Positions 1,954-64,000 of a stretch of 64,000 bases of DNA are shown here, in pieces. The position numbers and the translations under genes are program-made. The notes under the pieces are model-generated. The model searched no databases. It was not told where the DNA came from and worked only from the letters and a program-made list of their open reading frames with translations. Each line of letters starts with the position of its first letter. Position 1 is the first letter of the stretch. Location of the stretch: positions 1,254,917 to 1,318,916 of the forward strand of contig OZ316892.1 in NCBI GenBank assembly GCA_973895155.1, in the 5' to 3' direction. Origin of the DNA: Marsupella aquatica. Taxonomy: Eukaryota; Plantae; Marchantiophyta.

Positions 1954-3533
1954 TCAACACTATGAAATCTTGCACTCTAGAAAGCACTACAAGGGGTCAC
2001 AAAACCTAAGGGCACATTGATGTTTGACGCATAAAGACACGCTTCATTTTTGGGTTTCTCTCAAGTTTGAAGATGATTTTGAAACACATTTCACCTCTCT
2101 AGTCAACTGCCAACTAAAACTTAGTCTAGCACCCGAAATCTTAACGGCACAACGAGCACGAAATGCTCAGAAATAATATAAACGACCAGATTACAAGTTT
2201 AGGGAAGACTAAATCTATTCTCAAGGCCTTGAAACACAATAAGCTAAGGAGGCACTATTTGGATACCCGTACAATTATTCGATGATTGTATACGAATTTC
2301 ATTTGGTGGCCTTTGAAGCCCGTTTTCGTGGATTCTCAATACCCTTAAGAAGCTTTGCAAGGATAAAATGAATTATTCAAGAATTCAAGTTTTCGAGAAG
2401 TCTATTGCAGAGAGTCAATACGAAAATTTCATGGGCTTCTAAACTCTCATAAGGAATCCCCAATAGGACTGTCTTAGTTAATACTGATGTAAAGCATGTG
2501 TCCTCGTTACACTTTAACAAATCAGAAGTATGGGTGCAACCAATCGAGACATGTTTTCAAAATTCATTACAAAGGTAACGTCACCCATAGCAAGAGAACA
2601 ATTAACTCACGCATTTGATGTTTCAGGGATTGCCATGTCTGATTGTTCATCTCCCACCATCTTGCAAAGCTTCCTATATTTGAGATCCTTGGAAACCAAA
2701 GAGTGGCCTGTTTCTCCACTACAATGGTGCAAATTTCAAGGATTTTGACTATCTTCTGCCATTGAAGTAGAATCGTCTCGATGCATTGGTCAAGCACGAT
2801 GAATGTAAACACCCATTGCCTTGAATTGTTAGGTCCTGATGTTCCGATGTCAAGATTGCAATGTGCTCATCAATCTCTCCCTAGCTAAAACCCCAACATC
2901 GATCCACATCGGTGGATCTTCAAATGCCTAGTTTTGTCCTCTCCTCCTTTGGAATAGCATTTTGTCCGCATTCGTCTTGACGGCTATGGTAAGAGCTACG
3001 GTAACGTGCATGTATTTTTCCAGGTATCTTATGAATGAACGAAAGATACCAAACCTTTTGGATAGAGGCTATTTCTTTGGGTTTCGGGATCTTACAACAG
3101 GAATTTCACAACTCCCTATACTTTTAGTGTGGACAAATGAAATGCATACTATTGGGGGATACACAACTGAATCTTTTCCACAATTCACAATTGTTTTATA
3201 GCCCAGAGTGAATATTATACTTGGTGTAGTTGTCTTGAGTTTACATGTTCAATATTCATGCAGTGTACACTGTCCATGATGCAACTGAAATGTTCTTACA
3301 CTGTCCACATACCAAAATTATAACCCTTCTCTTAAGACAACGTAGTGCCTCAACTGCCTGAGAAATGCCTTCTCCCAACCATAGAAAATTTGAGAGATGT
3401 ACATATATTGTAGTCCCATTATAAAGTTTTGAGTTTTGTTGGACTGACTTTTTTTGGCAAAATTACTACAGTAGATTGCCACTCTCTTTTCTCTATATTT
3501 TCACCAGCATGCAGGTGGAGCCAAGCAAAGTGG

Positions 3534-3657
3534 AAACAAACCCACAAACAAATAGTCATCTAAACATACCATATGGAAACAAACTATAAACAAGTAGCCA
3601 TCTAAACATACCAAGATAAAACAAACCCATAAACAAATGGTCATCTAAACATATCAA
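3534..3657. repeat. About 3 copies of a ~43-bp tandem repeat (aaacaaacccacaaacaaatagtcatctaaacatacc...)
   Basis: Three imperfect adjacent copies visible by eye. Confidence 0.7.
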
Positions 3658-4697
3658 AGCGCCTAGACTTTGCACCTGGCCACCCCAGTGTGAAAACAAG
3701 ATTTGCCTTATGGTCAATAGACCAGACTCAAAGGAGTTGTCAAATGTTAGGTATTGAATGAGGGCACCTTCAGAAGGGATAAGAATGTGTTTGTGGATTA
3801 CTCCTGACCTTGATTCTCGGGGGGGTCATTTCCATGGAAGTGACATATCATGTGCGACAAAGTCTAGGGCCATTTAAATGGTTTTGGCGGAAGACTTATT
3901 AAGTCTTCAATGGAAACATAGGGTTGTTTAATTGCAAAATGCATATATGTCATCACATGATTGGTGTCGTACAACTTTATAGAAAGTGGCTTAGAGGGGT
4001 CATAAATGACCCAAACCATTGCACGTGATGTATGACCCTTCATATAGTGACCCCCCCCCCCCCCCCAAGCCTTGATTGTAAGGACTTTGTCTGACCCAGA
4101 GTAGTTACAAAGATTAGCTACAAAACAATGAGCAGCTCTCATTTGCTTCCAATTCACATAGTGGATGCCCAGGATTGCACACAATTATGCAAAGGCCCAC
4201 TATTGCCACTATTGGTGGCCCACAAGTTTTGCCCTCTCACCGGGCCTCTCACACCCTCCTTATTATGGCCCCTCGGACACTACCTACCACATTACTCTCA
4301 GTTATGAATTCAATCTAACATTTTAATTACTACATACCCCCATGGCAAACTCCTTCCAAAAATCCTGGAAGCATCTGGAAAGACATGAACACTATTAGTC
4401 ACAAGCAAGAATGGTTAGTTATGCAAAAAGAACCACACATGACTATTGGCATGTTTGAGGCAAGGCAAAGAAAAACAGTTAGACCCCTTAACTCTAAAAA
4501 CTATGGAAAACTGAAAAGTCAAACTTCAAATATTCAACAAGTAGATTGATTCAAAAGGGGTGAAAGAAAATAACATTTGGATGGGTTGTGATTGATATAT
4601 CAATGTTTTTTGGTAAAATGTTTAAATATTGTATTTAATTGACAAAAAATTTTAAGAACCATAAGTAGAACAAAACTCTTCAATTGGGTCTTCAATT

Positions 4698-15079: not shown

Positions 15080-16318
15080 TTAGCGTTCCAGTTTTGAATG
15101 AGAAGCTCCAGCAGGTGCCATTGGCGTCGGATAGCCGCCAGAAAATCCTGGAGATCCCGGTGCTCCCCCTGCGACTTGAGAGAAGACGTATGGGATAGAG
15201 GTTGGGAAATGAGACTGGTTCGTGTTTGGAACTCCAGAAGGTGACCTAGGAGATGAAGACTCTTTGTTCTGCGAAGGAGAAAAGGGCGATGGCGATGGCG
15301 ATGGCTGTCCAGAAGCCGAAGCATTGGGCGGCATCCCGGTGGCAGGATCCCGCGCATTTTTATCTTTATGGTACTCTTCCTGAAAAATCTCACCCAACTC
15401 CTTCAACCCTTTTGCACGAGCTCGAAGTACATCCTTGTTGCCATTGGGATCTGCCAACACCTTCTGGCAAACATGTGCGAGGGTTGCCTCAATGTCTACA
15501 ACATTCAATTTCCAAAGAGACCCCAGCATAAGCTCCTGCTTCGATTCCATATACTTCTCCAATTCTGATTCTGAAAGTTGGCCCCCACTTGCCTCCAGTT
15601 GACGTTTCATATCGTCCTGAATTTGCATTAATTGCACGACACCTGCTGCAGCAGTGACCTGGGATCTGACGTAGTGCCCTTTATCACGAACCCACTCTGC
15701 AAGGAAAGGAACACCCAAAAGTTGTTTCTTCCCAAGCTCTTTTGCACCCTGTCTTACATAGATACTGCCAATTGTGTAGAGCATGGGCCCTCCAAATGCT
15801 CCACCAGAAAGACGGTCGGCTTCTTTATGAGCCCAGTCCTTAAACCTAACTTTGTCTCCATCCACCCAAGGTTGGAGTCGTTCAATCAGTACCTTCACCA
15901 GCTTATCTTCGCGCTCATTTTGAATATCTTTCATCATCTGCTGCATCATCCGCATATCCAACGCCTGCCCATCAGATCCAATGTCAAGAGATGCCATAGC
16001 TGCCATCTTCAGCTGGCCAATATAATCCTCAAAAAGCTCACTCCCAAAGACCATTCCGAACACAGAGGCTGCGTCCATCATCCCGTCCTCCGAAACCGCA
16101 GTCTTCCCATATTTATCATACGCGTCCCTCTGCTTTGGATCACTAAGAACCTGGTAGGCCTCTCCGAGCACCTGAAAATTATGTGCTGCGTCTGGGTCGT
16201 TAGGGTTTTTGTCCGGATGCACCTTTCTCGCTTTTACGTAATACGCCTTCTTGATGTCAGCAGCTGAAGCATCTGGCGGTACCCCAAGCACTTCATAGTA
16301 GTGATTCTCCTTCACCAT
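15080..16318 (-). CDS. DnaJ-domain protein with DnaJ-X domain (plant DnaJ10-like / yeast CAJ1-Djp1-like), intronless CDS
   Basis: [13 protein letters not shown]...[10 protein letters not shown]-domain with HPD motif, followed by X-domain sequence ([17 protein letters not shown]...[13 protein letters not shown]). The first ATG in the ORF is at 16318. Confidence 0.93.
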
Positions 16319-17139
16319 CGTTCCCCAACCCAACTAGTGCAATGATTTAGTCTCACGGGAGAGAAGCGACTCCCTGCTTCGCCTCTGCGTGTAAATATTG
16401 GCCCAGATCTCTCAAAACCACGTCCACAGTTTTGTAATAGATCTAATTCCCCAAGATCTGATTTGGATTCCTCGTGGGTCTGCCAAAGGGAGGTGTCTTC
16501 CGAATTCCAGATCCCATGTGCCAAAGCCAGACGTCCGTTCCGATGCCAACAGAAATTGCCTCCGCTGATCAAACTGTGTATCGAAGGAACAAAACAATCA
16601 ATTTCCTCGAACTCCTTTCAATCTGAACGAAATCCAGCCCACCAAAGTATCGCAACTCACTCTAGAAATGACGCCCACCGCAACCAACTGATCCCACAAT
16701 CAATTGCTCGCTGCTCTGCCTGATTGATTGATTGCTACCGATCCGTAACTCCACTGAGCGGTCCGCACTAAAAGTATGGTCAATTTCTCGCTCTCTGAAC
16801 CGCCTAAGCACGCTGATTGAAACTGAAGGGGGCACGCGTACAGCACTATTGTAGTTGTGTAGTTGTGTAGCTGCGAGCTTGCGGCTTGGCGTCGAGGTGT
16901 TGGACACGCGTGGTGTCGAGGTGACGGAATTTGATGAGTCAGAGGAAGCTCTCGACAGGTTGCATGAAATTACTTGTAGACACGAGTCTTTCGGCTTGCT
17001 TTCGGGTTGCTTGGGTGGAAAGGATACGGTACCTATGTAGCAATTCTCTTTGCCATGAAAAGCAAGGATTATTAGGGACTCTCGAAGCCTGGTTTTAAAG
17101 AGCCACTAGCCATGACAAAAATCTCACATTTCATTCATT

Positions 17140-17720
17140 TCTAGTACTTTTTAAAATTAGCCTCACCTATCCCTTCTTTGAACATGAATAGGGGAGAGTC
17201 CAATAAAAATATAACCAAAGTATATTTACTATTCACATTCTTTGAAGGTTAACGTAATGATAAAAAAAATCATCATGCATGTCACCATTTTATTATACAT
17301 AACATACCATCTTCCTTTCTATGCACATATGTTATGGTGGGCCATAGAGTCCATTTTTTGAATGTAAATAGAATTATGACAAAAAGCATGCATGATTATC
17401 CTTTTACATACACCATAGACATGAGTTTCCCCATCCACATGGTGGATATATGATTAGCATATAATGTACATCATAGCCATGAGTTTTCCCATCACATGGT
17501 GGGCCATGGAGTTATGATCTAGAGGCTTCACTCGAGAAGCCTAGGCCCCAACTCTAGTATGTAATTGGCACTTTTATAAGTAAGAAAGATTGTGAAGCAA
17601 AGTCTCATGGTAGAGGGGAGGAATATGAAAAAGGGAGAAGTCTTGGACACTTCTCCTTTTATGCGGCCAATGGTGGTGTTGCCCCCCACTTTATAAGGGC
17701 ATCTCAAAGCTTGAAAATTA
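17140..17720 (+). repeat. Dispersed AT-rich repeat family 1, copy 1 (MITE-like or other non-autonomous element)
   Basis: Blocks such as ttctttgaacatgaatag, tatatttactattc, tatgcacatatgttatggtg and ctagaggcttcactc recur in reverse complement at about 39150-39600 and 48940-49235. Boundaries approximate. Confidence 0.65.
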
Positions 17721-18427
17721 TGCATGATGGCTATGGGCCATAAAATAATGTTCATAACTTTTTCACAAGGTTAGGTACAAGTGTTTTTTTCCTCACTAGC
17801 CTCTACAGCTGATCATAGCATACCTCCAATCTTCATGGCAAAAAGTTATTGACCATTACTGGATTTATGTGTCCGTAACACATAAGTACCGAGTTAAAGG
17901 TTCATCAAATTTGAGAAGTTCTATTGGTTCTCTTCCATAAGTACAGAGTTAAAAGTCCTTCAAATTTTGAGCTTTCAAATGCACTATTGGGTCTTGGCTT
18001 GTCTTCAAGTGGGGTGCTTTTGTTCCTTGGCAGTGTTCTTGGGACGTTGTTGAAAGTTATGCATTTGTGGTCCATCTTGTAACTCGGGTTATGGGACATA
18101 GTTAAGGAATTTAAGAAATGCCGGGATGTAGCATTGAGTCGCCCCATAAGGAAGGAATTACAGCCTCACCTCTCTCTCATAACATATCTCATTTTCCCTT
18201 TATTCTTGATCAACTACCACCTCAAATGCAACAGTAATCACCATGTAACACACAAAGCCCATGTGCCTTCAATTGTGTGGGTTTATGGAGTTGGGGCATC
18301 CTGGATTTCCAGATTTCTGCCTAAAGTTGCAGGTTAATGTCTAGAGCCCGCAGGCTTGCCTTACTCTAGTCAAAGATAAGCTCCCATATTTTTACAAACA
18401 TTCTGTAATACTTGAGTTACAGAAAGG

Positions 18428-18790
18428 TGTCATGACCATACGTAGCGTGCTAGACTATGTAGTGTGCTAGCAGAGTCCATACCTTAGATGGGCCGTAGTG
18501 CCTAGTTAGGAGTCTGGTTCCATGGTAGAGGGTTAGAGGGGGTGCCTTGTTGAGGGTGAATCCTCTAGTAGGACCCGCCCTCAGGGTTGGAGGGTATAGT
18601 GTGGAGAGGCTCAAAGGACGGTTAGTTCTTTGAGTTGAGCCTTTGGCGTTGAGAGAGCCTTGGTAGTGAGTGGAGCTCCTTGGCTATGGTGTCCCGTTAG
18701 CTTCGACCTAGATTCTCCAGTGGAGTGGGTTTGGCTTGACTGTGTGTGTTCTTACGCGTTTTTATGACAGTATGTCTTTCATGGATTTCA
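18428..18790 (+). repeat. Split direct repeat A1 (363 bp)
   Basis: Matches 27919-28242 apart from a 38-bp deletion in A2, about 7 substitutions and three small indels. Confidence 0.95.
18595..18634 (+). promoter_or_regulatory. Putative element promoter: TATA-like TATAGT at 18595 and inferred TSS/self-primer AGTTCTTTGAG at 18624-18634
   Basis: The 11-mer starts 29 nt downstream of the TATA-like motif and is the exact reverse complement of 18791-18801. Confidence 0.6.
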
Positions 18791-18801
18791 CTCAAAGAAC
18801 T
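18791..18801 (+). other. Putative self-priming primer-binding site (CTCAAAGAACT)
   Basis: Abuts the 3' end of A1; perfectly complementary to 18624-18634; no TGG-type tRNA PBS is present here. Confidence 0.75.
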
Positions 18802-21800
18802 CGTAGTGATCGATTGTAACTTCGATCAGAGATCAGTAGGATCTGGTAGGCTGTTTGATAGCATCAGCCGTGGATACATTGTGGTTCGTGGATCTGGTGC
18901 GTGTATGGGTGGGGAAGAAGCGCGTTGCTGAGAGCTTTCCAACGCACTAAAGATCGCCTGGTTTGGTCGAGCGAGTTGGAAGTAATCAAAGAATGAAGAA
19001 TCTGGTTCGTGTTCGACGGTTTTTTAGATTTGGAAAGCTTGAGTGCGGAAGCTCTGTTGGAAGTCATCCAGATCGGGTGAGAGGTTTCTGATGTTGATCC
19101 TTGTCTGATTCGCAACATCAATTCAATCGTGTAGAACTATTTAGCTCTAGTGTGTGGAGCGAATTGTTGTTTAGAGAGGGACCGTTGCAGATTTTTGTAT
19201 TGATGAATCTATGCGGAAGCGCTGCCGGATTTCAATGCGTTGGTAGTAGATCTGGATGACAGAGTGCAGATCTGTGTTGTGTGATCAGTGGCGCGAAAGC
19301 GCTATCCTAGTTGTGGCTCATAGATCGTGAGCGAAAGCGCTGTGCAACTTCAGAAATGTATAGGCCGAAATGTTGTCCGATTTTTAGCTTGAAGTACAGA
19401 CCTCAGTTGTAGTTGATTTCTTGTGGAGAGATAGCTATGGTGGCCAATTGAATTCTGGTCCAGACAGATTCATTTTCCGCCGAGGATTCATGGAGTAATC
19501 AGAGATCTAAATTTTGCGGACTAGCTCAAGGCCTGGCTATGGTGGATAGCGAACCTGCATGTTGGGGGCGCTTTTCTCGTAGCGTAGCATGGCGGAGCGA
19601 GTCGGGGCGAAAGGGGCATGTCTCGAGCATTTCTTGGCGTTTTGAGGCTTCGAGGCAACTCGTGGTAGCTCGGGGCGAGTGGGCGTGAGAGGCGGAGAAA
19701 AGGAGCAAGCTTGCTTGCTTGGGCGTGAGATAGTTTTGCAGATTTGTGAGTAGTTCTGTGAGTATTGTGTTGCATAACTGGTCACCCATCTTTGCACTAT
19801 TCTGCCTGCAAGACGCTTAACTGGCAGGTTTGCATTTTGCTAGTGTATAGACTGCCTTAGAGGAATTGGTGTAATATTTGGACGTTTTCCCCCATATATG
19901 CATCGTTTTAGGTTGCGTTAGGACCCATTTTGGGATTCCTAGCGGATGGTGGTGGATAGCGTTTCCATGTAGGTGACATTATCAAGTGCTGGGAGTGCGA
20001 GGAGCACGTCATAGACTACTAGCGGAGTAGCTACATTGCGTTAGGATTGTGTGGTTTGTTTTGTGGATTCAAGGGGCGCCACGGTTGGTGGATTGTGTTA
20101 ACTTGATTTATGTTTTGTATTTCATTTGCGATTGGAGGGTTGTCGTTGGACTTCCTGTGTTTGGATCCCCTCCATTGCTGCTTCTTGCTTGCGCGCCCAT
20201 TGTTAGGGCTGACGCTGATTTCCGAAGTAGTTTTACTCCAGTGTGCTGTCGGTAGTGAGGCTGGAGTGATGACCAATCAGACTACCTATGTTTCTCTCAC
20301 GGTGAGACTGGAGTAATGACCAGTAGACCATGGGAGGTTGCTTGTGGTGATGACAGGTTAGGTTGCCCACACCCATGTAGCTATTAGGGCTAGAGTAATA
20401 CGGCGACATCGACGTTACTTGGTTAATTAGTGGTGGTGATTTGGTGGTGGTGCTATTGCGGCTTGTCATCATGGAGCAGTTTGGTGGTCCTGTTGGGGAC
20501 CTTGGTGCTGACACTGGTGGTTTTACACGGAGTGGATTGAGGTATCGGCTACCTTTTCCACTACCATTAGTTGATGAGGACGAGGACGAGGGTGTCCCAG
20601 ACATCAAGTCTTCAGTTGTATTGTCCAGTATAGCAGCCCCATTGATTTGGGATATGGACGGGATGTACGGGGCCATGAAGGGCCCACAATGTTACTCAAG
20701 GGCAGTGGGCACCATTGAGTTGGAGGACTTCATTCAGGAGTTTGATACATGGTGTGATATGTAGATGTTGTGTAACGCCACGTTATTTACACCTTTCTTG
20801 GCATGGAAGGGGTTGTTTCAGTACTTGGAGGGGCCTCCCATGGATGATTATCATGAGTTCCGGAAGGATCATGCTATTGAGATTGAGGCATGGAGACAAC
20901 ATTGGTCTCCAACCTATGTGTCTATCACTCAGGGTGGTGTTGGTACTAGTGGAGGCACTAGTGGAGGTGCTAGTGGAGGCACCAGTGGAGGCACTAGTGG
21001 GGGCACTAGCGCTCCACCTTCGTTCAGCCCAGTTACAGAGTTCTTCAAGAGGTTGAAGAAGAACTACCAGGGGGTGAAGACAGAGAAGTTGAGGAGTCTT
21101 CAGGATTTTGAGAGAAAGACTGGTGAGAGTCTTCATGAGGCATACACTCGTATGCGGCGTTTGATTTCAGTTACCCAGGGTGTGACCGAGGCACAGGCTG
21201 TCCAGTTCTGGTATGGGATTTTGGACAAAGAGTTGCGGAGGAGGGTACGTGATGCTACTCTGATGAGTGATGATCCACCCACGTTGTCCCGTGTGTTTGT
21301 TTTGGCTGAGAAGATTGAGCTTAACATGGTGGAGGAGAGGGTAGTGACATCTGCATTCAGTAGGGATACAGCCACTACTTCTCGTGTTCAGCCAGCCACT
21401 TTACAGTCTCGTAGTAGTGGTGGTGGTGGTAGTAGTGGGAGTCGTGGAGGTTCGGCACGACCTCAGTTAGGTTCCAGAGGGACGAGTGTGCAGAGACCAT
21501 TGCCTTCATATGCTGCCCAGCAGCAAGGACCAGTGTGTTGGACATGTGGAGGTGATCATGTCCGGAGGGTTTGTCCCCAGGAGAGTGGGGGACGGAGTTT
21601 AGAGGATGGATCTCAGTCAGCCCAGGTGCAGTGTGATCATTGTGGTCAAGCAGGTCATCCTCGAGACCGTTGTTTTGACCTATACCCAGAGTTGAGGATG
21701 GGTGGTCGAGGTCGTGGTGGAGCACCTCAGAGAGGCCGAGGTGGTGGAGGTGGTAGAGGTGGTAGGGGTGGTAGAGGTCCACCAGCAGTTGGAGCGCCTA

Positions 21801-23311
21801 TAGTGGCTGCCCCTCCCCCTACGACAGAGGCTGCTATGGCGGCTAGGATTGAGTAGTTGGAGCAGAGACTTGCTACTATGGCTGGTATTCCACCTCGAGC
21901 AGGTTCGGGAGCAGGGGCTTCCACGTCTTATGGGGGGGATGATCTCTCTTATATGGCAAGTGCGGCACAAGTTGAGGCATCAGTTGCATTGATGAGAGGT
22001 GCAACTAGAGCTTCAGAGCCACGTGGTGCCACTATGGAGTTGGACCCACAGAGGGGTGAGGCTGGGAGGCAGGCTAGGCTTCCCCAGTCATTCTTGTTGT
22101 CAGAGGTGCTTAGGACTCCATCCATGGTTCCTATGAGACTTGTTGAGCCAATAGTGGATACAAGGGCATCTACATCACGTGTAGTAGACACAGATATAGC
22201 CTCTAGTGCAGTGTTGCGGATGGCAACCTCAGTATTAGGATCCTCATTGTTTTCAGCAACTGAGTTGATGGCCTCAGGAGTTGACATGACTCGTGTATTT
22301 CAGCTAGCTAGCACGTTGTGTGAACGTGGGAGTGTTGCTGGCACTACGAGTGCTGAGGTGTGTGAGGGTGTTGTTGTTGAGCAACCCTTAGTGTCAGATG
22401 TTGCATCAAGTACCGATGCTACTTGGCAGGCGGCAGCGGCGAGGATGGATGCATTACCAGCCCGACCAGCCATTGATCGTGAGAGGCTTACACTTGGAGT
22501 ATGTATGTTGGACAACCGGACTGGTGTCTTTCAATTGGTGAGTCCTTCAGGACAGGTGTATAGACCAGAGAGGGTGTTGTTGGACTCTGGTGCCCAACCC
22601 TTGATGTTGGGGAAGGCAGATTGTATTGGTTTGGGTATTCAGAGGTCAGAGTTGGAGCCATGCCCATTCCAGATTCAGACATCACTTGGAGGAGCCAGTG
22701 ATAGGTCTCACTTCATGACACGGGAGAGGGTGTCAGTGTAGATGAGGCCAGATCATGCGACTGATAGCTCTACATTAGGAGTGACTGTTGTGGTGACATC
22801 AGTAGAGTCGTATGATGTACTAGTTGGAGGTGCAGTGTTGTACCCGGTGGGTTTTCAGATGGACTATTGGACTGAGACAGCAGCCTTTAGACCTGGTTGG
22901 CAGTCTGGTGATGGACGTTTGAGCCAGGTGCCTGTGAGGTTGATTTCTGGGGTTAGACCAGGAGGGACTTCCCCAGAGGTATTGGCATTAGTTGCTGGTT
23001 TTAGTGGAGTGGTCACTTGGCCAGGTGATTTGTTGGAGGGTAACCTCTTAGCCGTGGATTCTCTAGTCTATGAGGAGGTAGAGGAGGTCTTTAGTTTGGC
23101 GGCAGTGGTACCCTCCTTTTTGGATGTTCCACTTTGGAGTTCAAGTGGAGTGTTGAGGCAGAAGGCTGATCATTTGATATCACGGGCTTGGAGTACACCC
23201 TTTGTACGTGTGGAGGTAGAGGAGGCTCCAAGACGAGCTCCTACTGGTGGTCCAGTGGGGTTGTCTCCTTTGGATACAACACCCATTGTTTGGGAGTATC
23301 CACCAGAGGGT

Positions 23312-24260
23312 ATTTGTGTGTTGGACCTCGTTGGTGGGATTAGCACTGATTTGGCTGTAGTGTTGCAGGCCGGGATACCTATGAGGAAGTATTTGTATGT
23401 GGAGAGAGATGAGACCGCGAGGAGGGTTTCATCACGACATCTTGCATTGTTGATGCAGAGATACCCTGAGTTGTTGTCACAATCCGCAATTCGGGGGTAT
23501 CAACGGAGTTTGCCATCAGACATTTCATTGTTGGGGGCGCAAGACCTTGAGAGAGTTGGCCCTATTGATTTGGTGATTGTTGGATGGCCATGTCAGGGAC
23601 ATACTCGGGCTGGTCATAGTGGAGGGTTACGTGACCCTCGTTCTCATATATTTTGGGAGATGTTGCGGGTGTTGCGTCATCTTCAAGTGCATCAGGCACG
23701 TGCTCCAGCTTACATTCTGGAGAATGTCCCTTTGTTGGGTGATACTAGATCTCATGTGATCACGGCTACACATGAGGTACGGTCATGGATTGGGCCAGTT
23801 GTTTTGTTGGATGCAGCGAGGGTGGGCTCGCGTGCACATCATCCACGGTTGTGGTGGACGAACTTGTTACCCAGGGAGCTTTTGAGGCGCGCCTATGATG
23901 CAATCCAACGGCCGCTATCTCTCATCGTGGATAGTATTTTGGATGGTGGACGACGTTCTCAGGTGGTGAGAGCAATGGATAGGTCACCCATGGCAATAGT
24001 GAACCTTGTGGGGCACTCAGCCTAGAATGGCTTTGCCTACATTTGTGAGTTTTCCCTCGTCACATGCCTATAGGGATGGTGGTCCTGGGCTTGTATGGGA
24101 TTCTCATGTGCACCAGTTGGTGGAGCCCAACGCTGATGAGAGAGAGCGTGCTATGGGGTTTCCTACCGGTGTGACATTAGTCTCTTCAGTTTCAGAGGCA
24201 TCACGTCTCTAGGTGTTGGGTCAGGCTATGGACCTGAACTGTTTGACGTGGATTGTGAGC
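23312..24260 (+). other. DNMT3-like C5 cytosine DNA methyltransferase domain within Pol
   Basis: Motifs in canonical order: I VLDLVGGISTDL, II YVERD, III DI, IV DLVIVGWPCQ (PC at 23588-23593), VI YILENV (23720), VIII LDAARVGSRAHHPRLWWTNL, IX ERERAMGFPTGVT, X RL*VLGQAM. Confidence 0.9.
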
Positions 24261-27200
24261 CTTGCAATGGCCGAGCAGCGGAGACTTAGGACCATGTCTA
24301 TGGTTACTTTACCCCTGGTGATGAGCTCGTTGCCTTCCGGGACGGTAGAGGCATCGGCTGGGGGCGAGGAGAGTGGTAGTTTGCATCCTTGGAGTACATG
24401 GGATGTGATGGATGGGCATGTAGAGTTGGTGGCCCATGTTGGTGGAGGAGTTGTTTGCTCAAATGATGGTGTAAAGGAGCATGTGCCATTGTCTAAGGAG
24501 GTGGCATAGCAACCAATGGCGTCGTCCTCTTCCTCTAGTGTACTGGTAGAGGAGACTTGGGAGCCATCACTTGGACCCAAGCTGACAGGAGGTGAATGAC
24601 GATGGTTGACACAATTCCTACGTGCTTATAGGAGTTGTTTTGCCTTTAGCATGAAGGAGTTGGGTGCTTTGGTTGGACCTGGTATACGGATTGATTTGGC
24701 TAGTGATACAGCAATCTTTCGTCGTCCCTACAAATATAGTGATATGGAGAGGGACTTGATTCGGAGTAAGACGTTGGACCTTTGGAGGCTGGATTAGTGG
24801 AGTTGTTGCATGGGGAGTATGCGTCAGCCACTATCATGCCTGCCAAAAAGAATGTGCATGGCAACTACACAGAGAGGCGGATGTGTGGAGATTACCGTCC
24901 TATCAATCGGCAGACAAAGGCCGATAGGTATGCCATGCCCACACCTGAGGAGATCTTTGATGTGGTGGGACATGCAAGGATTTTCAGTACTTTGGATCTT
25001 CGGGAAGGATACCATCAGTTGCCAATTCGAGTGAGTGACAAGGCCAAGATAACATTTTGGGGAGTCAACTCATATGGCAAGGATTGTTTGTATCAGTGGC
25101 GATTCTTACCCTTTGGGTTGAAGAATGCACCTGCCGAGTTTCAGAGAGTGATGGACAGGATCCTAGTAGGATTGGATTTTGTTCGGTGTTACATTGATGA
25201 TATCTTGGTGTTCAGTGATACTGTGGAGGAGCACCAACAACATTTGCAGATTGTGTTTGAGCGATTGAAAGCTCATGGTCTACGTTTACATCCAGGAAAG
25301 TGTAGGTTCTTCCATGAGGATGTTGAGTACTTGGGTCATGTGATCTACCCAAGTGGTTTGGAGGTCCAACAGGCAAAGGTTGAGGCTATTGCACGTATCC
25401 CTTGGCCGACAGATGTGAGTAGAGTTCGGGCATTCATGGGATTGGCGAACTACTATCGGCGATATGTGAAGGGATTTAGTGCTATAGCAAAGCCTTTGAA
25501 CAAGTTGTAGAAGTCTGATCAGGAGTGGCAGTGGGGAGATGACCAGGAGAGAGCTTTTATGGAGCTCAAGACCAAGTTGGTGTCTGCGCCTATCTTGAGG
25601 AGACCTATCAGGGGTTGCCCATTTCAACTGCACACTAATTGGAGTATGTTGGGGATTGGAGTGGTGTTGACACAACATGATGATGAGAACAAGGAGTTTG
25701 TGGTGGCCTATGCAAGTCGTTCAAACAATGCAGCAGAATCAAGCTATGGTTCGTACGAGGGAGAGTGCTTGGCAGCAGTGTGGGTTGTGGCACACTTCAG
25801 GTGTTACTTGTTTGGCACAGAGTTTACCCTTGTTACTGATCACCAATCGCTCAAGTGGTTGATGGAGTCTGATAAGCTTACAGGAAAGCTTGCACGGTGG
25901 GCTCTTATCTTACAGGAGTATGACTTTCAGGTGGTACATAGACCTGGAGTTACCAACCTTGATGCTGATGGGTTGAGTAGGAACCCATGTCCTAGTCAGG
26001 AGGATGATACTGGAGCTAGATGGCATGGAGAGGTTGATGAGGAGATGGTGCCAGGATGGCATGCATCTGCCTTTTTGTGTTTGTTGGGTGTGAACTCTAG
26101 TATGGAGGATCACCTTACACCTTCCTCTAGTCAGAGGGTAGATGGCCAGCCTGCAGATCCGGAGGTTGGAGATGGTGCTACAGATCAGCATGATATTCAT
26201 GATGATGCGTTGGTGTTAGAGTTCCTACAGACCAGTAGGGTGCCAGGCATAGTGAGTGCCAAGGAGCGAGACCGTGTTCTCCAACGGGCTAGGAGGTACT
26301 GATTGGAGGAAACACATGTCCTCCGTGTGTGGGAGGATGGTAGAGTACGAGTGGTACCCCATATAGCTCAGAGAGAGCGCATTGTGCGACATGCTCATGA
26401 GGAGTTGGGATATTTTGGAGTAAAGCGTACGTATAACTTACTTCTTGGTCAATATTGGTGGCGTGGCATGCACACTCAGGTGAAACAGTTGGTGTCACAT
26501 TGTATGGTTTGCGATCGGGTGAGGGCATTGTTCAATGCCCCTACACCACAGTTACACCCCTTACCTATTATGGGGTTGGGTTACCGTTGGAGTTTGGACT
26601 TTGCAGGACCATTACCGTTAACTAGGCGGCATCATCGGTATGTGTTGGTGATGGTGGAGCACTTTTCTAAGTGGATTGAGTTGGTGGCATTACCTGACAA
26701 GGCAAGTGAGGGAACAGCGTATGCATTTCTTGATAGAGTGCTTAGTCATTTTGGTGCACCAGCGGAGGTGTTGACCGACCAGGGTATGGAGTTTCAGGGT
26801 GAGTTTCAGGTCTTGTGTGACAAGGCGTTGATTGATCACCGGACCACATCTCGAGATCATCCAGAGGCGGATGGTTTGGCAGAGCGTGTTGTTCAGACGG
26901 TGAAGAGGGGATTGCACAAGTATGGCCTACAGAAGGGGCATCTTGGAGATTGGGACATTCAGTTGCCATGGTTAGCCATGGGGTATAGGTTCAGTCGTCA
27001 AGCATCCTTGGCTTCCTTCTCACCTTATTTTCTGTTGTACGGCCGAGACCCAAACTTGCCCACAGCAATTCGTCGAGATTCTAGTGAGGTGGTGAACCTT
27101 GATGACCCGGAGGTGTGGCTGAGGGTGTGTTCTCAAAGGGCACAGCTCTTTCAGAGAGTTATGCCAACAGCCTTGGAGAACCTTGCCATTGCTCAACACA

Positions 27201-27493
27201 GAGATACGTTGCGTTATGCAACCATCCGGGGTGGAGGTTATCGACCATCCATTCATAGGTTCCATGTGGGGGACTATGTCTATTTGCAGCAGACTGCACT
27301 GACAACGTTGGATGTGGCGGCAGGACGCACTATCTTACGTGTGAGAGAGGTGTTGGCTTCTGGAGTTCTCATGTTGGAGGGTCGTGATGGTGTTGTTTGG
27401 AAGGACCATGTTCGTAATTGTGCGCCATGTCACCTCCCAAACGTGGATGGTACAGTGGACCCCAGCTTGGCAGTGATACGTGCTAGCTTGAGG

Positions 27494-27628
27494 TGCATGT
27501 TGTGTGAGTCTGCTAGTGAAGCAGCCCGTATGTTGGTTTGTGATAGGTGTTCTAGGGGTTGGCATATGTCATGCTTAACTCCACCTGTTGATGTTGTGCC
27601 TACTGGACGGTGGGTTTGTCCTCGGTGT
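27494..27628 (+). other. PHD finger (C4HC3) at the integrase C-terminus
   Basis: CMLC...MLVCDRC SRGWHMSCLTPPVDVVPTGRWVCPRC matches the PHD consensus. Confidence 0.92.
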
Positions 27629-27795
27629 ACTTAGGAGGTGGATGACTTGATCTTCACATGGTATGGATTGCAGATGGGCAATTAACGATGGGGCAACATA
27701 GCACCCGGCTTTCTGATCCGTGCACCCACAAAGGTGTATAGCATGTAGTAGATGGATAGGGCTACCTGGGAGTTAGAGGGACCTAACCGCCAGTT

Positions 27796-27805
27796 AGGGG
27801 GGCGA
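27796..27805 (+). other. Putative polypurine tract (AGGGGGGCGA) immediately 5' of repeat B1
   Basis: Purine-rich run abutting B1; no such tract precedes A2. Confidence 0.6.
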
Positions 27806-27916
27806 GTTGCGGTACACTGTCTTGTATTTGTGTATGCTCTTGTCCATGTTATGCATGTATGTGAGTATGGCATGACCAGCGATGCATGTTGTATGACGAT
27901 GTGGATTCGCACGACA
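27806..27916 (+). repeat. Split direct repeat B1 (111 bp)
   Basis: Differs from 28243-28353 at 3 positions. Confidence 0.95.
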
Positions 27917-27918
27917 GC

Positions 27919-28242
27919 TATCATGACCATACGTAGCGTGCTAGACTATGTAGTGTGCTAGCAGAGTCCATACCTTAGATGGGCCGTAGTGCCTAGTTAG
28001 GAGTCTGGTTCCATGGTAGAGGGTTAGAGGGGGTGCCCTGTTGAGGGTATAGTGTGGAGAGGCTCAAAGGACGGTTAGTTCTTTGAGTTGAGCCTTTGGC
28101 GTTGGAAGAGCCTTGGTAGTGAGTGGAGCTCCTTGGCTATGGTGTCCCGTTAGCTTCGACCTAGATTCTCCATTGTGGAGTGGGTTTGGCTTGACTATGT
28201 GTGTTCTTACGTGTTTTATGACTGTATGTCTCATGGATTTCA
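27919..28242 (+). repeat. Split direct repeat A2 (324 bp)
   Basis: Copy of 18428-18790; begins TATCATG (A1 has TGTCATG); separated from B1 by a 2-bp GC spacer. Confidence 0.95.
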
Positions 28243-28353
28243 GTTGCGGTACACTCTCTTGTATTTGTGTATGCTCTTGTCCATGTTATGCATGTATGTG
28301 AGTATGGCATGACCAGCGATGTATGTTGTATGATGATGTGGATTCGCACGACA
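28243..28353 (+). repeat. Split direct repeat B2 (111 bp), right terminus of the element
   Basis: Copy of 27806-27916; ends CACGACA followed by the AAGG duplication. Confidence 0.95.
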
Positions 28354-29109
28354 AAGGCTTTACCTGGTTGGAAATCCCAGGAACAAAAACCCAGTTTTCT
28401 GCTGAGTAGGGTCTTTGTTTTTCTTTAATTTCCTTTGTGGGCTATTAGTGGTCTTCTGGGGTTGAAGGGGACTCTGGCTTGTGGAGCCTCTTTGGTCTTG
28501 TAGGGGTCTCTCCCTCGTTTTTTTTCCTCCCTTGATTGGGTGTTTTGCCTTTGAGACCCTTTCCAGCTTGGCGCTTTTGTTCTTTGGCAGTTTGATATGT
28601 ATTAAACTTACCTATCTGCAAATGGCAAGCTGGTATAGCTCTGGCGCGAACTATATAGTTCGCGCCACGCACAGGAACTTGACTAGAAGCCCTAAATTAA
28701 ACAGATTATTTCTAATAAGAAAAATGGAAAGGGAGATGAATTACTTCCAATCAAGAAGCGGAGAGAGGGATGGGGGACTATAGGTACAACAGCAGACTGA
28801 CAAGGAATCGAGGAAAGAACAAATGAATCAACCAAACAAGGAAGTTGAGAGAAGGGGAGATGAAGGGGGTTTACTATTGTATTTTGCACATGTGGCACTC
28901 AATGCAAGATAATAAGCCTCTACTTGTGACCATTAGATATGTATGGTCAAATCTGGAACGTTGTTTTTTGCTGAATTAGTCATCTAAAAACGTTTTTAAA
29001 ACCTGTTGTATCATTCACAAGCCCTGGTAGCAAACTTGCAAAACTTTGCAGTAAAAGGAAACACTAGAGGGGAGGGGAGAGATGGGAGCTTTTTATCTTT
29101 TGCCAGGGT

Positions 29110-39600: not shown

Positions 39601-39699
39601 GCCAGCTGTATTGTGTATTTGCGTTATTCGAACACTAAGCGTGATTCAAGGGTCGGACCATTGTAGTATCCCCAAACCGGTCACCAGCCCACGATCCCG

Positions 39700-39940
39700 A
39701 CCCGTGCAACCGGTCGCCGCTTGGGTAAGTGACGAGCCCCATCCCTTCAACCGGTCTTCGCTCGGTTGAGTTTGACGATCCCCATCCCTTCAACCGGTCT
39801 TCGCTCGGGTGAGTTTGACGGTCCCCGTCCTTTCAACCGGTCGCTGCTCGGGTGCGTTTGACGATCCCCATCCCTTCAACCGGTCGCCGCTCGGGTGCGT
39901 TTTGACGATCCCCATCCCTTTAAACTGGTCACCGGCCCGG
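39700..39940. repeat. ~43-bp tandem repeat, about 5-6 copies, upstream of the UBX gene
   Basis: Unit cccatcccttcaaccggtc(t/g)(t/c)cgctcgggtgagtttgacgatc at about 39738, 39781, 39824, 39866 and 39911, with a degenerate copy at about 39700. Confidence 0.9.
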
Positions 39941-44469: not shown

Positions 44470-44595
44470 CTGACTTGTCACTGAGTTTATGACTTATCCA
44501 GACAGAAGCTGGGTAACTTGTCACTGAATTTATAACTTCTCCAAACAGAAGCTGGGTAACTTGTCAATGAATTTATAACTTCTCCAAACAGAAGC
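44470..44595. repeat. ~43-bp tandem repeat, about 3 copies (acttgtcactgaatttataacttctccaaacagaagctgggta)
   Basis: Two near-identical copies plus one degenerate copy. Confidence 0.8.
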
Positions 44596-47500
44596 ACTTG
44601 GTAACGGTTGGTAGCAAGGTGACAAATCTCCATATAGCAAAGTGATATACCTTGCACTCTTTCCATTTGATGAAGACTCTCCCATGGTTTGATACTTTCT
44701 TGGATTGCACATTCACAATCTGCAATAGATATACTCAATCTGCCTTTGACAGCTGACAAAAGATTGATGGAGCTTACTCTTTTAGGTACTTTTGAGTAAA
44801 TGTTGATGGCATAGGATTCAGCAACCCAATTTCTTGTCCTCAAGCTTAAAGTCATCAGTCACTCTGAATGGCTTTCTTCCAAAATTGCAACTCTTCTTTG
44901 AATGAGAACAATTGGAGCGTCTTGTCAAGTTTCCCATATGCCTTGCTTGATTGCTTTGGAGTCTGTTTCCTTAGTGACGGCGCTTGGAAAGTAATACAGT
45001 TTGAATCTGTCTTCATCATCTTTTCACACAAGCAAGCCTCAAGGTGTAATGCCCAGCATGCTCGCCACTTGTGTCCAAGGGATCTATAAATGCCTTGAGA
45101 ACGCACCGGGAGTTGTTGTGATGACTACCTCGGGTAATCGGAACCAACGGCAAACATATTCTGGAGCTCACTCTCAAACTCCTTTATGTTGAATTTCCTT
45201 TTTCAAGTTACAACATCCCTTGAGTAGGCCACTAGTGAGAGTCTGGTCACTGGTCCTACGGCGGGCCACTACCTATCTCTCATCAAACTCACTACCCCTG
45301 GAGTAGCTCTCACATCATAAATCCACTGAAAAACCTACCTCCTCAAGCTCTCAATCTCTCATACGCAAAACTCTATCTCAACCTCAAACCTACTAGCCCT
45401 AAGCACTAGTAAGCTAAATCCAAGTCCTACTCATAATCAGGAACCAAGGAATTCTCTTCTCCAAAACACAGAAACTACTATATTCCATCCGCCATAATGC
45501 ATAATACCCCTCCTTATTGAGCCAAAGCTCTCTTATAGTCCTCAGGTAGCACCACTCTTGTATGTCGATTCAGCACTTGCCTCTAACCAGCAATGAGTAT
45601 CTAGTCGGTCCTTCTTTGTTTCCAGTTGTTGGGTCAAAATGGTTCGGCACGACAACTTGCTTGGGATTGATTGTGGACTATTCAATACAACACAGAAACA
45701 ATAATGGATCTTCCTGATGTACATATCATGAGGAAAGTAGTAGGGTCACCTCTAACCCCTGCTGTTAAAATGGTCTTTATCCTACTCCTAATGGGTGAAT
45801 CAACAAAGCATAGACCCCGAGTACTATCTAGGCTGATGATAACTTAAGTAAATTGTTTGGGTAAGACAATGATTGGCAACAGGTCAAGTTGGCTAGGACT
45901 ATATTAATTCTAGCAACCCTCAAACCGGGTTGCTGGTCTCTGCCCTCATAGATCACTTGAGGAATGTCTTCGTTGGGAGTGGATGGCCAGTAGCAGTAAT
46001 CAAACTGATCAAATCATCTATATAACACCAACCAGCTTCCTTTGTAGCACAATTTATTGTCATAGGTAATGGGCAGAGTTAGCCCTTTGTGTACATAAAT
46101 CTTCTTGTATTGTGTGGACTGGTGTCATCTGGATGTTTTGGACCAGTTATCTGAGATGGTGCAATTTCACAGAACCTGAGAAATAATTTTCACTTGGTTT
46201 TCAATATTTGGTGAAAACAGTACAGGACCATGCAGTTGTTTGACAACATTGCTATACATGGAACCAGACATTCATTGTTGGTTGAGTCTATGACATGTGC
46301 AAAACTGACCAGATCCAATTCAGAAACACTACTCGTTTTCCTTTACAATGATCCTTTGCATTCAGTGGAAAACTGAAATTCAGCTGTGATCCTCCATAAA
46401 CGTTAGTTTGGACACTCGCAACTCAAACGTAGACCAGCAGCACTCTATGGCATGATAAATTACTCAAGGTATACTTCAACCTAATAAACAGATCTTGAGA
46501 GTTTAAAATGGCAATTGAATTGCTCTTTCTACAAACGACCACAAGCCTGTATAGCAAAGTTACTATAACATGGCTGGCCTGGTTCTGACTCTCAAGTATT
46601 TGTGCTCAAATGTATCTAATTAATAAAGTACCATATTAATGTAACAATGTATTCGAGTATGTTGCAAGCGAGGAGATGTATCACGCTCCGGGAACGTGAG
46701 ATCCTGTGGTTACAGCTTGCGGCAGCCTCACATCTAAAGATGGTGAAACAAATGGAGAATTTTGTAATTTGTGCAATAGGCTGTGAAGCCTCATGTGAAC
46801 CTCTATGAAGTTTTTGATATAAGCAACCTTTGGAAGCTTTATTTTCTTCTCCATGGTTAGTATGAATGCGAAGAGCTCTTGTGCAACCTGGACAGGACTT
46901 TGTTGGTCATTGTAGTGAATCTAATAAGTTTTGTACACTTCACTCTCCAACAATGGATATCACTATTCCAGTTGCCAATTCCATTAGTGTTCTGTGTACG
47001 TGCGCCATTCTTTACAGTTTGAGATGGTCTTTTGGTACGATCAATTTGATCTCTTGGCGCTGAAATTGCAACTGTTGAACAAGCCAGCACCTTGATCCTT
47101 GAGCTTTCATATACTAAAGTTCAAATTATAGGTTTTCTAGTTTAACTTGCAGCCACCGCATAGGAGTTTTGATCATATCTACTTATCTGGTTCCTGCCTG
47201 ATCTATTTCTTGCAGGACCAACTTGTCATAATTTTCTCCATATAATACTTGTATTCATTGCTTTCTTTGTGAGATTCAACCAGCTTCCTAGACTCTGCGG
47301 ACTAGACACGAAGATATGTGATTCAGCTCAACTAAGGCTATGTCCATTGGACTACACAAAAGCTTTACTGCACTCTAGGCCCGTTGGCCATACCGAGTCT
47401 TTGCAATACAAGTTTTCTTTATCTGTCAACTGGCTACGTGACAATGAGAACAAGTTACTTGTATCCAAACAATTCAAACACTCCTTGAGTATATAGTGCG

Positions 47501-48939: not shown

Positions 48940-49235
48940 TTTAGTTTCATGGAGCATCATCTTACTTATAAAGCGCCAAGGGCAAGTTAGAGTAAGGGGT
49001 GTAGGCTTTGAGAGTGAAGCCTCTAGGCCATGACTCTAGGGCCCCGCCAAAATATATGTGCATTTAAAAAAATATGCATATATAAATGAATATTATTTTA
49101 TTTATTTGGTTAAGATATTTGAAGAATGAGAATAGTAAATATATTTTATTATATTTTATTGCACTCCTCTACTCACTTTCAAAAGAAGGGGTAATGGTGA
49201 CTAGTAGTGGGGGCTAGTTCTCCAAATTACTTTGA
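48940..49235 (-). repeat. Dispersed AT-rich repeat family 1, copy 3 (internally deleted)
   Basis: Reverse complement matches about 17150-17250 and 17500-17600. Confidence 0.6.
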
Positions 49236-62300: not shown

Positions 62301-64000
62301 AAAACTGAGCTTGACAGGTATTTTGAGCTATACTATCGCGCCTTACATGATTACTCTAAATCTCTCGAGATTTTATTTCCGTGTTGGTTTTCAAGGAGTT
62401 TTGTTCTGAATTGTGTTAGTTTGGAATGTCAGGATTGTCATCGAAATGAAGGATCAGCAGATTCAGGCCCAAAAATCGGTTGAAAGTTTGCAGCAGGAAT
62501 GTGCTGAGAAGGATGTCCAGGTATATATGTGGTGCAAACAAGTTGCTTTCGCAATTTTAGAACAGTTTTTATGTCCTTGCTCACAGGAGTTGATACGCCC
62601 TGAAGCGTCATTTCGTTTTCGTAATCTTTGCAGTCAAGAAGCTGCGAAGCGCATATTGCTGAGTTGATGTTGCGAGCTGAAAAAGAAGCGTCCAAAAATC
62701 AACAAAAGGTTGTCATCCTATAATCTCATGTTGAATTGTTGTATGTGGAAACTATATACAGACAAGTAACCGAGGTGTTTCTAATCTTTTATTCGTTGCT
62801 TTAGTCCTACGAATTGTTGATCTACTAACGAATGGATGTTCGTCAATTCAGCTCGATATTGTCAAATATGAGGCTGAAAGACAACGCGTCGCGAGGGAGG
62901 CTCTTGAGAAAGAACTGGTGGCCTTGAAGTGCGAGATGGGATTGATACAGGTAACGATGGACAGGCAGGAAGCTCAACTAGTGCGGGAGATTCAAGGTGC
63001 AGAGACTTCGAAAACTGAACTTGACAGGTACCAGAGCTATCCTACCACGCCTAACACGACGTCTCCAGTCCACTCCAGATTTTAGTTCCCTGTTGATTTT
63101 AAATTAAGGTTTGTTCTGAATTGTGTTAGTTTGGAATACCAGGATTGTCATCGAAATGAAGAATCAGCAGATTCAGGCCCGCAAATCGGTCGAAGGTTTG
63201 CAGCAGGAATGTGCTGAGAAGGATGTTCAGGTATTACTTTGTTGTATTATGTAAGTTCCTTTTTGTAATTTTAGAACAGTCTTTATGTTTTTGCTCAGAC
63301 GAGTTGATACGTCCTGAAGCATCGTTTTGTTTCCTCATCTTTGCAGTTAAGAAGCTGCAAAGCGCATATTGCTGAGTTGATGTTGGGAGCCGAGAAACAA
63401 GCGTCCGAACATCAACAAAAGGTAGTCATACTGGTTATAACCTGTTTAATAGTTGTGATTTCTGACCACACAGATGACTTGGAACGGATGCAATGACGTT
63501 ACTGTCTTGTCTGGTGCAGCTGAAAACCCTTGAAGCCATGGTGGAACATTTCAACGTGGACGAACGTAAAGTTAATCCGGTTGGTGGGTTACTTAGTAAA
63601 GCGGTTGAGAAGTCCACAGGCAAGGTTAAAGGAGCCGCTTCACCATTTAAGTGTATTGGTTCAGGTCTAGACAAGCAAAGATCTTCAGAGGTTGACGAGG
63701 ACCTCTCCACTGCCAAGAAAAGGATTAAGGAGCTGGAGACTGTCGCTGCTTCTCGTCAGAAAGAGGTATGCGTTTTAGTCACTTTCGTTCACCGGAATGA
63801 GGATTTTTTTCTGCAACAAGTGCGACAACGTGACAGTTATCATATCGTTTTGCTTTTGGAAAACAGCACAACATGGCCCCATAAATGTATCATGATTCTT
63901 ACCTTGGTTTCTATCCAGGTCTTCATGCTCAACACGAAACTTGCGGAGGCAGAGAGTATGACTCATGATGTAGTCAGAGATCTTCTAGGAGTCAAAATGG
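50346..64000 (+). CDS. Kinesin-12 of the POK (phragmoplast orienting kinesin, KIN12C/D) type; many exons including a ~3.8-kb coiled-coil exon (57935-61747); continues past the right edge
   Basis: Motor motifs [23 protein letters not shown]|[59 protein letters not shown]; kinesin-12 block [12 protein letters not shown]; POK-type C-terminal motifs SPFKCIG and [25 protein letters not shown]. Confidence 0.93.
62086..63430 (+). repeat. ~710-bp intragenic tandem duplication of three kinesin exons with their introns
   Basis: Exons 62142-62317, 62433-62520, 62634-62708 repeated as 62852-63027, 63143-63230, 63347-63421. Confidence 0.92.

Follow-up and report, generated by a model that had tools for sequence, protein, structure and literature searches.

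Insertions of a Gypsy-Dnmt3-PHD retrotransposon family from non-flowering plants and algae begin and end within the repeat

By examining a stretch of 64,000 nucleotides (the window) from the liverwort Marsupella aquatica (GenBank assembly GCA_973895155.1, contig OZ316892.1, positions 1,254,917–1,318,916, forward strand) we could show that it contains a decayed copy of a Gypsy-type retrotransposon family, here called Gypsy-Dnmt3-PHD, and that the inserted copies of this family, which is found in non-flowering plants and algae, begin and end in the middle of the repeat. The element in the window reads A1, internal region, polypurine tract (PPT), B1, the dinucleotide GC, A2 and B2, and is flanked by AAGG on both sides. 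We suggest that copies of this type, A-internal-B-GC-A-B, arise when the DDE integrase cuts a pair of abutted attachment (att) sites, CA-GC-TG, which lies inside the U3 region, and not the ends of the complementary DNA (cDNA); we consider this explanation quite probable. The layout, the target-site duplication (TSD), the fixed spacer, the variable A|B join, the complementarity of the self-primer and the co-variation of B1 and B2 are established by the sequences themselves.

A preliminary description of this stretch had arrived at the same order and at the same boundaries of A1, B1, A2 and B2, all of which we can confirm (Table 1). Besides the 38-bp deletion in A2, A1 (363 bp) and A2 (324 bp) differ by 7 substitutions in 322 aligned bases, and B1 and B2 by 3 substitutions in 111 bases. 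The B|A junction of the window is CACGACA-GC-TATCATG. Here the base found in A1 had previously been restored by assumption; in fact G is the majority base at position 27920 in all four read sets examined, where contigs of the A1 type are also counted, and thus the junction of the window can be restored to CA-GC-TG; the relatives mostly have CA-nn-TG. It was also seen correctly that the PPT adjoins B1 and that the primer-binding site (PBS) adjoins A1, and this PBS turns out to be a probable self-primer.

Table 1 Features of the element in the window
Feature	Position	Strand	Remarks
Left TSD copy, AAGG	18424–18427	+	exact 4-bp match with the right copy
A1	18428–18790	+	left terminus TGTCATG (att, TG side), followed by the putative distal U3, R and U5
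TATA-like box	18595–18598	+	29 nt 5′ of the putative transcription start
Self-primer site	18624–18635	+	complement of the PBS; putative start of the RNA
PBS, probably self-priming	18790–18801	+	directly after A1, without TGG
gag region	20399–22738	+	two CCHC-like knuckles, continues into the protease; stops inside; start approximate
C5 cytosine DNA methyltransferase domain in pol	23294–24022	+	PF00145, E=4.9e-9; continues in another frame to ~24.4 kb
Reverse transcriptase	24770–25507	+	PF00078, E=2.3e-31
RNase H	25511–26299	+	PF17917, E=3.2e-34
DDE integrase	26303–27493	+	PF17921, PF00665; zinc finger, core D,D(34)E, C-terminal part
PHD finger, integrase C-terminus	27494–27631	+	PF00628, E=1.8e-10
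PPT	27796–27805	+	short, AGGGGGGCGA, adjoining B1
B1	27806–27916	+	putative proximal U3, terminates in CACGACA
Spacer GC	27917–27918	+	2 bp, within the buried att junction CA-GC-TG
A2	27919–28242	+	38-bp deletion compared with A1; G-to-A decay at 27920
B2	28243–28353	+	right terminus CACGACA (att, CA side); left boundary is the putative cDNA-end join
Right TSD copy, AAGG	28354–28357	+

The two kinds of junction differ in their constancy. The B|A junction CA-nn-TG has a spacer of 2 bp in 27 of 27 cases (a hand tally in which the loci L040 and L051 may duplicate other insertions), namely GC in 7, AC in 12, AT in 4 and GT in 4. All four spacers are GC or products of C-to-T decay of GC; TATC in the window has the same origin, and loci of family 3 often read CA-nn-TA because of this decay. 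On the contrary, the A|B join deviates from its modal length in 7 of 19 copies of subfamilies 1 and 2, with PPT bases in L011 and L053, PBS bases in L054 and L062, filler in L001 and L080, and one extra base in L049 (Fisher p=0.0009 for the difference in length variability, hand tally). A fixed B|A and a variable A|B junction is the pattern predicted for an inherited att site and a join of free ends, respectively. The fixed spacer agrees with the earlier proposal of an att pair buried in U3, and the variable join, which looks end-joined, with the proposal that A2|B2 represents joined cDNA ends. In the window A|B reads CA-GT-TG and might be taken for another att junction; this idea was discarded because other subfamilies have TTCA|ATAC or TTGA|GTTT at this place.

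Two aberrant insertions were observed. One of them, present in two assemblies (L025, right end at 3245–3878, and L026; left end not visible), has the order internal-PPT-B-GC-A-PBS, to which positions 1–180 of A are attached in inverted orientation, terminating exactly at the att end. This structure fits a cDNA whose right end consisted of A plus a copy of the primer, and it would fit a plus strand in which the primer copy was retained and which primed anew at the start of its own R and integrated via the new att end. It thus resembles a snap-back cDNA inserted by way of an att on the A side. In the other (L061, 3209–3465) the left end consists of inverted B, the PPT and ~126 nt of the internal region, joined to the final bases of A1 and to the PBS; this copy nonetheless terminates at an att site.

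The split layout is not restricted to the window. From a metagenome scan the best 80 of 553 confirmed stretches were kept as related loci, 22 of which stop or are interrupted ahead of the 3′ repeat, so that 58 are informative. The PPT is followed by B in all 58 and by A in none. The 3′ end B-nn-A-B was found in 28 loci, corresponding to 21 unique insertions after removal of shared flanks, and an end of the A-internal-B type, in which B is followed by the flank, in 21 loci (19 unique). The other 9 include L043, L046 and L051, which are cut by the contig end, L032 and L033, which are truncated inside A, L022 and L074, which read B-nn-A-PBS-internal without flanks and are probably collapsed assemblies, and the aberrant insertion L025/L026. 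Nine intact 5′ ends are visible (8 with a linked 3′ end and an inverted copy in L055). In none of them is B found upstream of A, and in all nine PBS-type sequence follows directly after A, that is, an order A-B-PBS does not occur. The B-A-B insertions are distributed over at least three subfamilies, down to ~50% integrase identity. In a viral collection 9 sequences matched the pattern, none of them a relative.

In addition, contigs of four sequencing runs from two organisms were aligned to positions 27300–28242 of the window. Back-joints from A to B are present in all four runs, a joint from PPT to A is absent among the 6 joints listed, and mixed flanks extend beyond the end of B in the read contigs among the matches listed. 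The left side has weak support from a 151-base contig, identical to 18302–18452 in two runs, which extends only 25 bases into A1; an empty-site allele at the left junction was absent among the matches listed, with two runs giving no cover at 18344–18399.

An exact TSD of 4 bp is present in 6 of the 8 elements with both ends, and none of them extends to 5 bp. The duplicated sequences are AAGG in the window and in L003, ACCT in L064 and ATAA in L078 for the A-internal-B-A-B copies, and ACTA in L031 and TGTG in L027 for the A-internal-B copies. The right end is CA in 39 of 40 cases. The family thus has the TG..CA termini and a TSD within the 4–6 bp of Ty3/Gypsy elements; two full long terminal repeats (LTRs), with a PPT before the TG terminus and a PBS after the CA terminus, are missing, and the termini are located inside the repeat that PPT and PBS define. 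A fixed target AAGG, to which the window, L003 and loose ends seemed to point, was rejected because AAGG is found in only 2 of 40 right flanks; these flanks lean to A at position 1 (20 of 40). The preliminary description had asked whether the window holds a one-off copy of a family with ordinary LTRs, and with no PPT-A in 58 loci and no A-B-PBS in nine 5′ ends the split layout is clearly the family norm. Of the further check it named, independent insertions with the split order and distinct TSDs, the order B-A-B is present in 21 unique insertions and A-internal-B in 19, and the TSD is exact in 6 of 8 elements.

The PBS and the site inside A1 at 18624–18635 are complementary in 12 of 12 positions. 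The complement is 12 nt long in the window, 16 in L003, 15 in L053, 16 in L022 and 14 in L074, and has different sequences in the four subfamilies concerned (window/L003, L053, L022 and L074); the chance rate of an 11-mer match at a random point of the window is 0.00075 (20,000 draws). A TATA box is located at −26 to −32 from the self-primer site in 6 of 7 elements examined. The PBS likely acts as a self-primer. As a self-primer consists of the first bases of the RNA, this site together with the TATA box places the likely start of the RNA ~197 nt into A1, with U5 reaching to the end of A and B, next to the PPT, opening U3. Tf1/Sushi and Tcn1 are known to prime themselves (PMC6317226). In subfamily 2 the distance between B1 and B2 is 0.076 within elements as compared to 0.108–0.111 across elements (10 elements, with private shared variants), and fixed differences between B1 and B2 are absent from both subfamilies 1 and 2. 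Thus, B2 behaves as a fresh copy of B1. The unit of reverse transcription had been proposed to be B-GC-A, and the self-primer after A, the PPT before B, the TATA box 5′ of the primer site and the co-variation of B1 and B2 all argue for this unit.

The decayed reading frame has the domain order gag, protease (PR), cytosine DNA methyltransferase (DNMT), reverse transcriptase (RT), RNase H (RH), integrase (INT) and PHD finger, that is, the order PR-RT-RH-INT with a DDE integrase which is characteristic of Ty3/Gypsy elements. At least 5 in-frame stops and a frameshifted stretch near 24.0–24.8 kb interrupt the internal region, and for the protease a weak Pfam match was found in the nearly intact relative L022 only. 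The methyltransferase domain (PF00145) lies between PR and RT in both the window element and L022. In the distant relatives P0195 and P0196 it follows RNase H and does not precede RT, which suggests domain shuffling or a second capture. The best match of the integrase profile in the PDB is Ty3 Gag-Pol (E=2.4e-29). The spacing from D to E is 34 residues, one below that of Ty3 and PFV, in all 18 rows that could be parsed from an alignment of 26 and likewise in all 32 parsed locus matches. The loop before the catalytic Glu reads R-D-H-P-E-A-D-G in the family and A-N-H-P-Q-T-D-G in Ty3; both the spacing and the loop may be linked to the cutting of a continuous junction. No Pfam match to a tyrosine recombinase was obtained for stop-to-stop open reading frames (ORFs) of at least 70 aa in the window element and at least 90 aa in L022, a scan which short or broken ORFs could escape, and no chromodomain match at the C-terminus of the window integrase, where a PHD finger is found instead.

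We envisage that the RNA would reach from ~197 nt into A1 to A2 and would prime itself on the PBS after A1, and that its reverse transcription would yield (B-GC-A)-internal-(B-GC-A). The integrase would bind the att pair of the left LTR, which is likely to be the first one to become fully double-stranded; in standard reverse transcription the left att pair is completed long before the right one. Each strand would be nicked after CA and both 3′ ends would be inserted 4 bp apart. The true cDNA ends, the end of A and the start of B, would be end-joined to give the A2|B2 join, either just before strand transfer, as a 2-LTR circle, or just after it. Cutting at the left att pair and joining of the cDNA ends would reproduce the observed element, with GC lost and the TSD gained, and the sequence is compatible with either order of join and cut. 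Cutting a free 2-LTR circle at either LTR would give the mirror form A-B-A-internal-B equally often; this form was found in 0 of 5 cases (p~0.03, or 0.06 without the window), which favours the left att pair. Integration of a circle junction, as suggested in the preliminary description, is therefore supported as to the internal att pair and the joined cDNA ends; the free circle is disfavoured by the missing mirror form, and a linear cDNA that is cut and end-joined would give the same product.

Cut in this way, a 1-LTR circle would yield A-internal-B; lacking a 3′ R, such a copy would be a dead end. 1-LTR circles are a known by-product of reverse transcription (PMC13332604). The A-internal-B copies fit the cutting of 1-LTR circles or a later recombination between B1 and B2. 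They are about as common as B-A-B (19 versus 21 unique insertions), and their terminal branches are slightly longer, the difference not being significant (p=0.26 and 0.60). Taken further, we lean towards the view that an old streptophyte Gypsy lineage has uncoupled att from the ends set by RT, and that its integrase would cut both strands of a continuous CA-GC-TG. Of the products, the A-internal-B copies derived from 1-LTR circles would be dead and the A-internal-B-A-B copies derived from end-joined 2-LTR forms live.

Several points weigh against cleavage of the internal att pair followed by end joining. What is said above on cDNA, circles and enzyme activity concerns a family which is known here from sequences alone, and its relatives come throughout from short-read metagenome assemblies. 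The bias towards the left LTR is derived from the 0 of 5 mirror forms. A self-primer match is absent from L027 and is limited to 7–9 nt in L030/L031, L076/L077 and L078; in the star-like subfamily 1 the B1/B2 distances within elements (0.067) and across elements (0.067–0.073; 6 elements) do not differ. The TSD copies match in 3 of 4 positions in L018, L053 has no TSD, and L022 and L074 could be ordinary copies with B-nn-A LTRs. Finally, an overlap of 1 nt is seen at the modal A|B join (12 of 19), and this also fits a template jump of RT. Such a jump is the main rival for the origin of the A|B join. The internal att would be the same, but B2 would be a product of RT: having reached the right cDNA end, the plus strand would switch to the 3′ end of the minus strand as template and copy B-GC-A once more. 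The integrase would then bring together the TG end from the left LTR and the CA end from the third copy, without a circle and without end joining by the host. Besides the overlap, this would explain why A-internal-B-A-B occurs without the mirror form, and L025/L026 suggest that the 3′ end of the plus strand can re-prime and that the new att end is used. However, filler and retained PPT or PBS bases (L001, L053, L054, L080) resemble end joining at circle junctions, and the jump offers no direct route to the 19 unique A-internal-B copies; we regard it as rather unlikely.

Other explanations fare considerably worse. A layout of this kind is presented as typical for DIRS elements in PMC5890265, and one might therefore assume that a circle is integrated in the manner of DIRS and PAT by a tyrosine recombinase acting in trans, with the DDE integrase as a passenger. 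This is very improbable. It is largely refuted by the exact 4-bp TSDs of differing sequence (AAGG, ACCT, ATAA, ACTA, TGTG), and the TG..CA ends, the loss of the 2-bp spacer at the ends, the conserved DDE triad and the absence of a recombinase among the scanned ORFs of the element also speak against it. That the split copies are the outcome of later recombination between tandem or nested copies of an ordinary Gypsy element with A+B LTRs is suggested by the resemblance of A2+B2 to a complete TG..CA LTR, and recombination between B1 and B2 could yield A-internal-B copies. For the latter copies it is still a possible source; for the layout of the family it is refuted, since PPT-A (0 of 58), A-B-PBS (0 of 9) and a PPT-to-A joint among the 6 listed are all missing, and we give this explanation as a whole very little credit. 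A rearrangement, autointegrant or assembly artefact confined to the window copy, for which the contigs reaching only 25 bases into A1 leave some room, is practically negligible. At the level of the family it is refuted by the report of the same layout in Klebsormidium (PMC5890265), the 21 unique independent B-A-B insertions in at least three subfamilies, down to ~50% integrase identity, and the A-to-B joints in all four read sets.

Named relatives are found in Calypogeia, Marchantia, Riccia, Sphagnum, Klebsormidium and Haematococcus, and homologues of the methyltransferase in Calypogeia, Marchantia, Sphagnum and Riccia. The window integrase is 53–55% identical to INT(+PHD) proteins of K. nitens, and L074 and L043 group with the K. 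nitens integrase P0006 with a support of 100/100 in a tree of 31 rows (18 hand-picked family loci, unnamed outgroups, base of the family unresolved). L074 has the junction CCCGACA-GC-TGTCGGG, with the same CA-GC-TG. Two DNMT searches gave no named K. nitens protein, and the link to this alga is via the integrase, with proteins that are not labelled KnitGypsy. The window integrase is 82–86% identical over the aligned parts to liverwort and Sphagnum proteins (P0004, P0045, P0053, P0086), and the B/A repeats are 75–80% identical to metagenome copies; horizontal transfer among bryophytes is possible.

PAT, TOC1 and Ngaro are elements of the order DIRS with split direct repeats. Elements of this order, for example SymbioDIRS-Dnmt3, share the arrangement A-coding-B-A-B with the window family (PMC5890265), but they use a tyrosine recombinase, whereas in the window family a DDE integrase is found together with a PPT, a self-primer and a 4-bp TSD. 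The preliminary description knew of no such layout for a Gypsy element; in this respect it has to be corrected, as the legend of Fig. 4c in de Mendoza et al. (2018, PMC5890265) gives KnitGypsy-Dnmt3 of Klebsormidium nitens with DIRS-type repeats and Gypsy domains. Like the window family, this element has Gypsy domains, a cytosine methyltransferase inside Pol and A-coding-B-A-B repeats. The same paper regards the acquisition of the methyltransferase as an event of the K. nitens lineage, whereas the named relatives of the window family include liverworts and Sphagnum; its accessible text is silent on TSD, termini, priming and mechanism. In the literature searched, where the name KnitGypsy occurs in one paper only, we found no further description and no account of termini or mechanism; Repbase, theses and subscription papers may hold one. 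As far as this literature goes, the internal att site, the self-priming, the TSD and the one-LTR form are undescribed.

The chromoviruses Tf1/Sushi and Tcn1 have ordinary LTRs. They resemble the window family in self-primed reverse transcription, which is here deduced from complementarity, and in the Gypsy domain order, and carry a chromodomain (PMC6317226); a PHD finger, a methyltransferase and permuted repeats set the window family apart. The model of Panganiban and Temin (1984), in which integrase acts on two abutted att sites at the symmetric junction of a 2-LTR circle, resembles the mechanism proposed here and was displaced by integration of linear DNA (PMC11054761). In that model the cDNA ends form the att junction by being joined, with a spacer of 4 nt, whereas in the window family the site is distinct from this join, is inherited as part of U3 and has a spacer of 2 nt. 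The closest chemical analogue of the buried att pair is the minicircle junction of the insertion sequences (IS) IS3, IS30, IS21 and IS256, where a DDE enzyme cleaves abutted ends with a short spacer (1–2 bp in IS2) and then attacks the target (PMC3299598). The likeness to IS3/IS30 drawn earlier is apt for the abutted ends and the short spacer; it ends where the IS junction is made afresh by the transposase in each cycle with host DNA as spacer (PMC3299598), whereas here a fixed GC is hard-coded, copied through RNA and inherited. For the active Gypsy-7a_cRei of Chlamydomonas both a PHD finger and ‘LTR subparts’ are described, and its left LTR lacks the last 8 bp of the right one (bioRxiv 10.1101/2022.06.16.496473); it is possibly a minimal version of the asymmetry seen in the window family.

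Outside the element the window contains an intron-less ORF of 417 aa with DnaJ and DnaJ-X domains (15083–16333, minus strand), which may be a retrocopy, and, towards the end of a long coiled-coil ORF, a tandem duplication of ~710 bp (62031–63432, 84–93% identity). Tandem repeats of 43 bp form short arrays at 39691–39901 and 44473–44601, two short inverted matches lie 31 kb apart (17217–17549 and 48996–49147), and the left flank of the element has many small dispersed repeats.

The integrases of retroviruses and LTR elements are understood to use the ends of linear cDNA (PMC11054761). A natural family with an internal, abutted att pair at which all insertions have their ends makes the chemistry of junction cleavage directly testable with a eukaryotic Gypsy integrase, and it would show how repeats arranged as in DIRS elements can come about in the absence of a recombinase. 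LTR finders that look for a pair of flanking LTRs, as in PMC6317226, would overlook the family, and it is therefore likely under-annotated in Marchantia, Sphagnum and other bryophytes. The methyltransferase-carrying Gypsy elements are extended from Klebsormidium to land plants. If the proposed cycle is true, integration by cleavage of a junction, an idea abandoned for retroviruses, would be the normal life cycle of an LTR retrotransposon.

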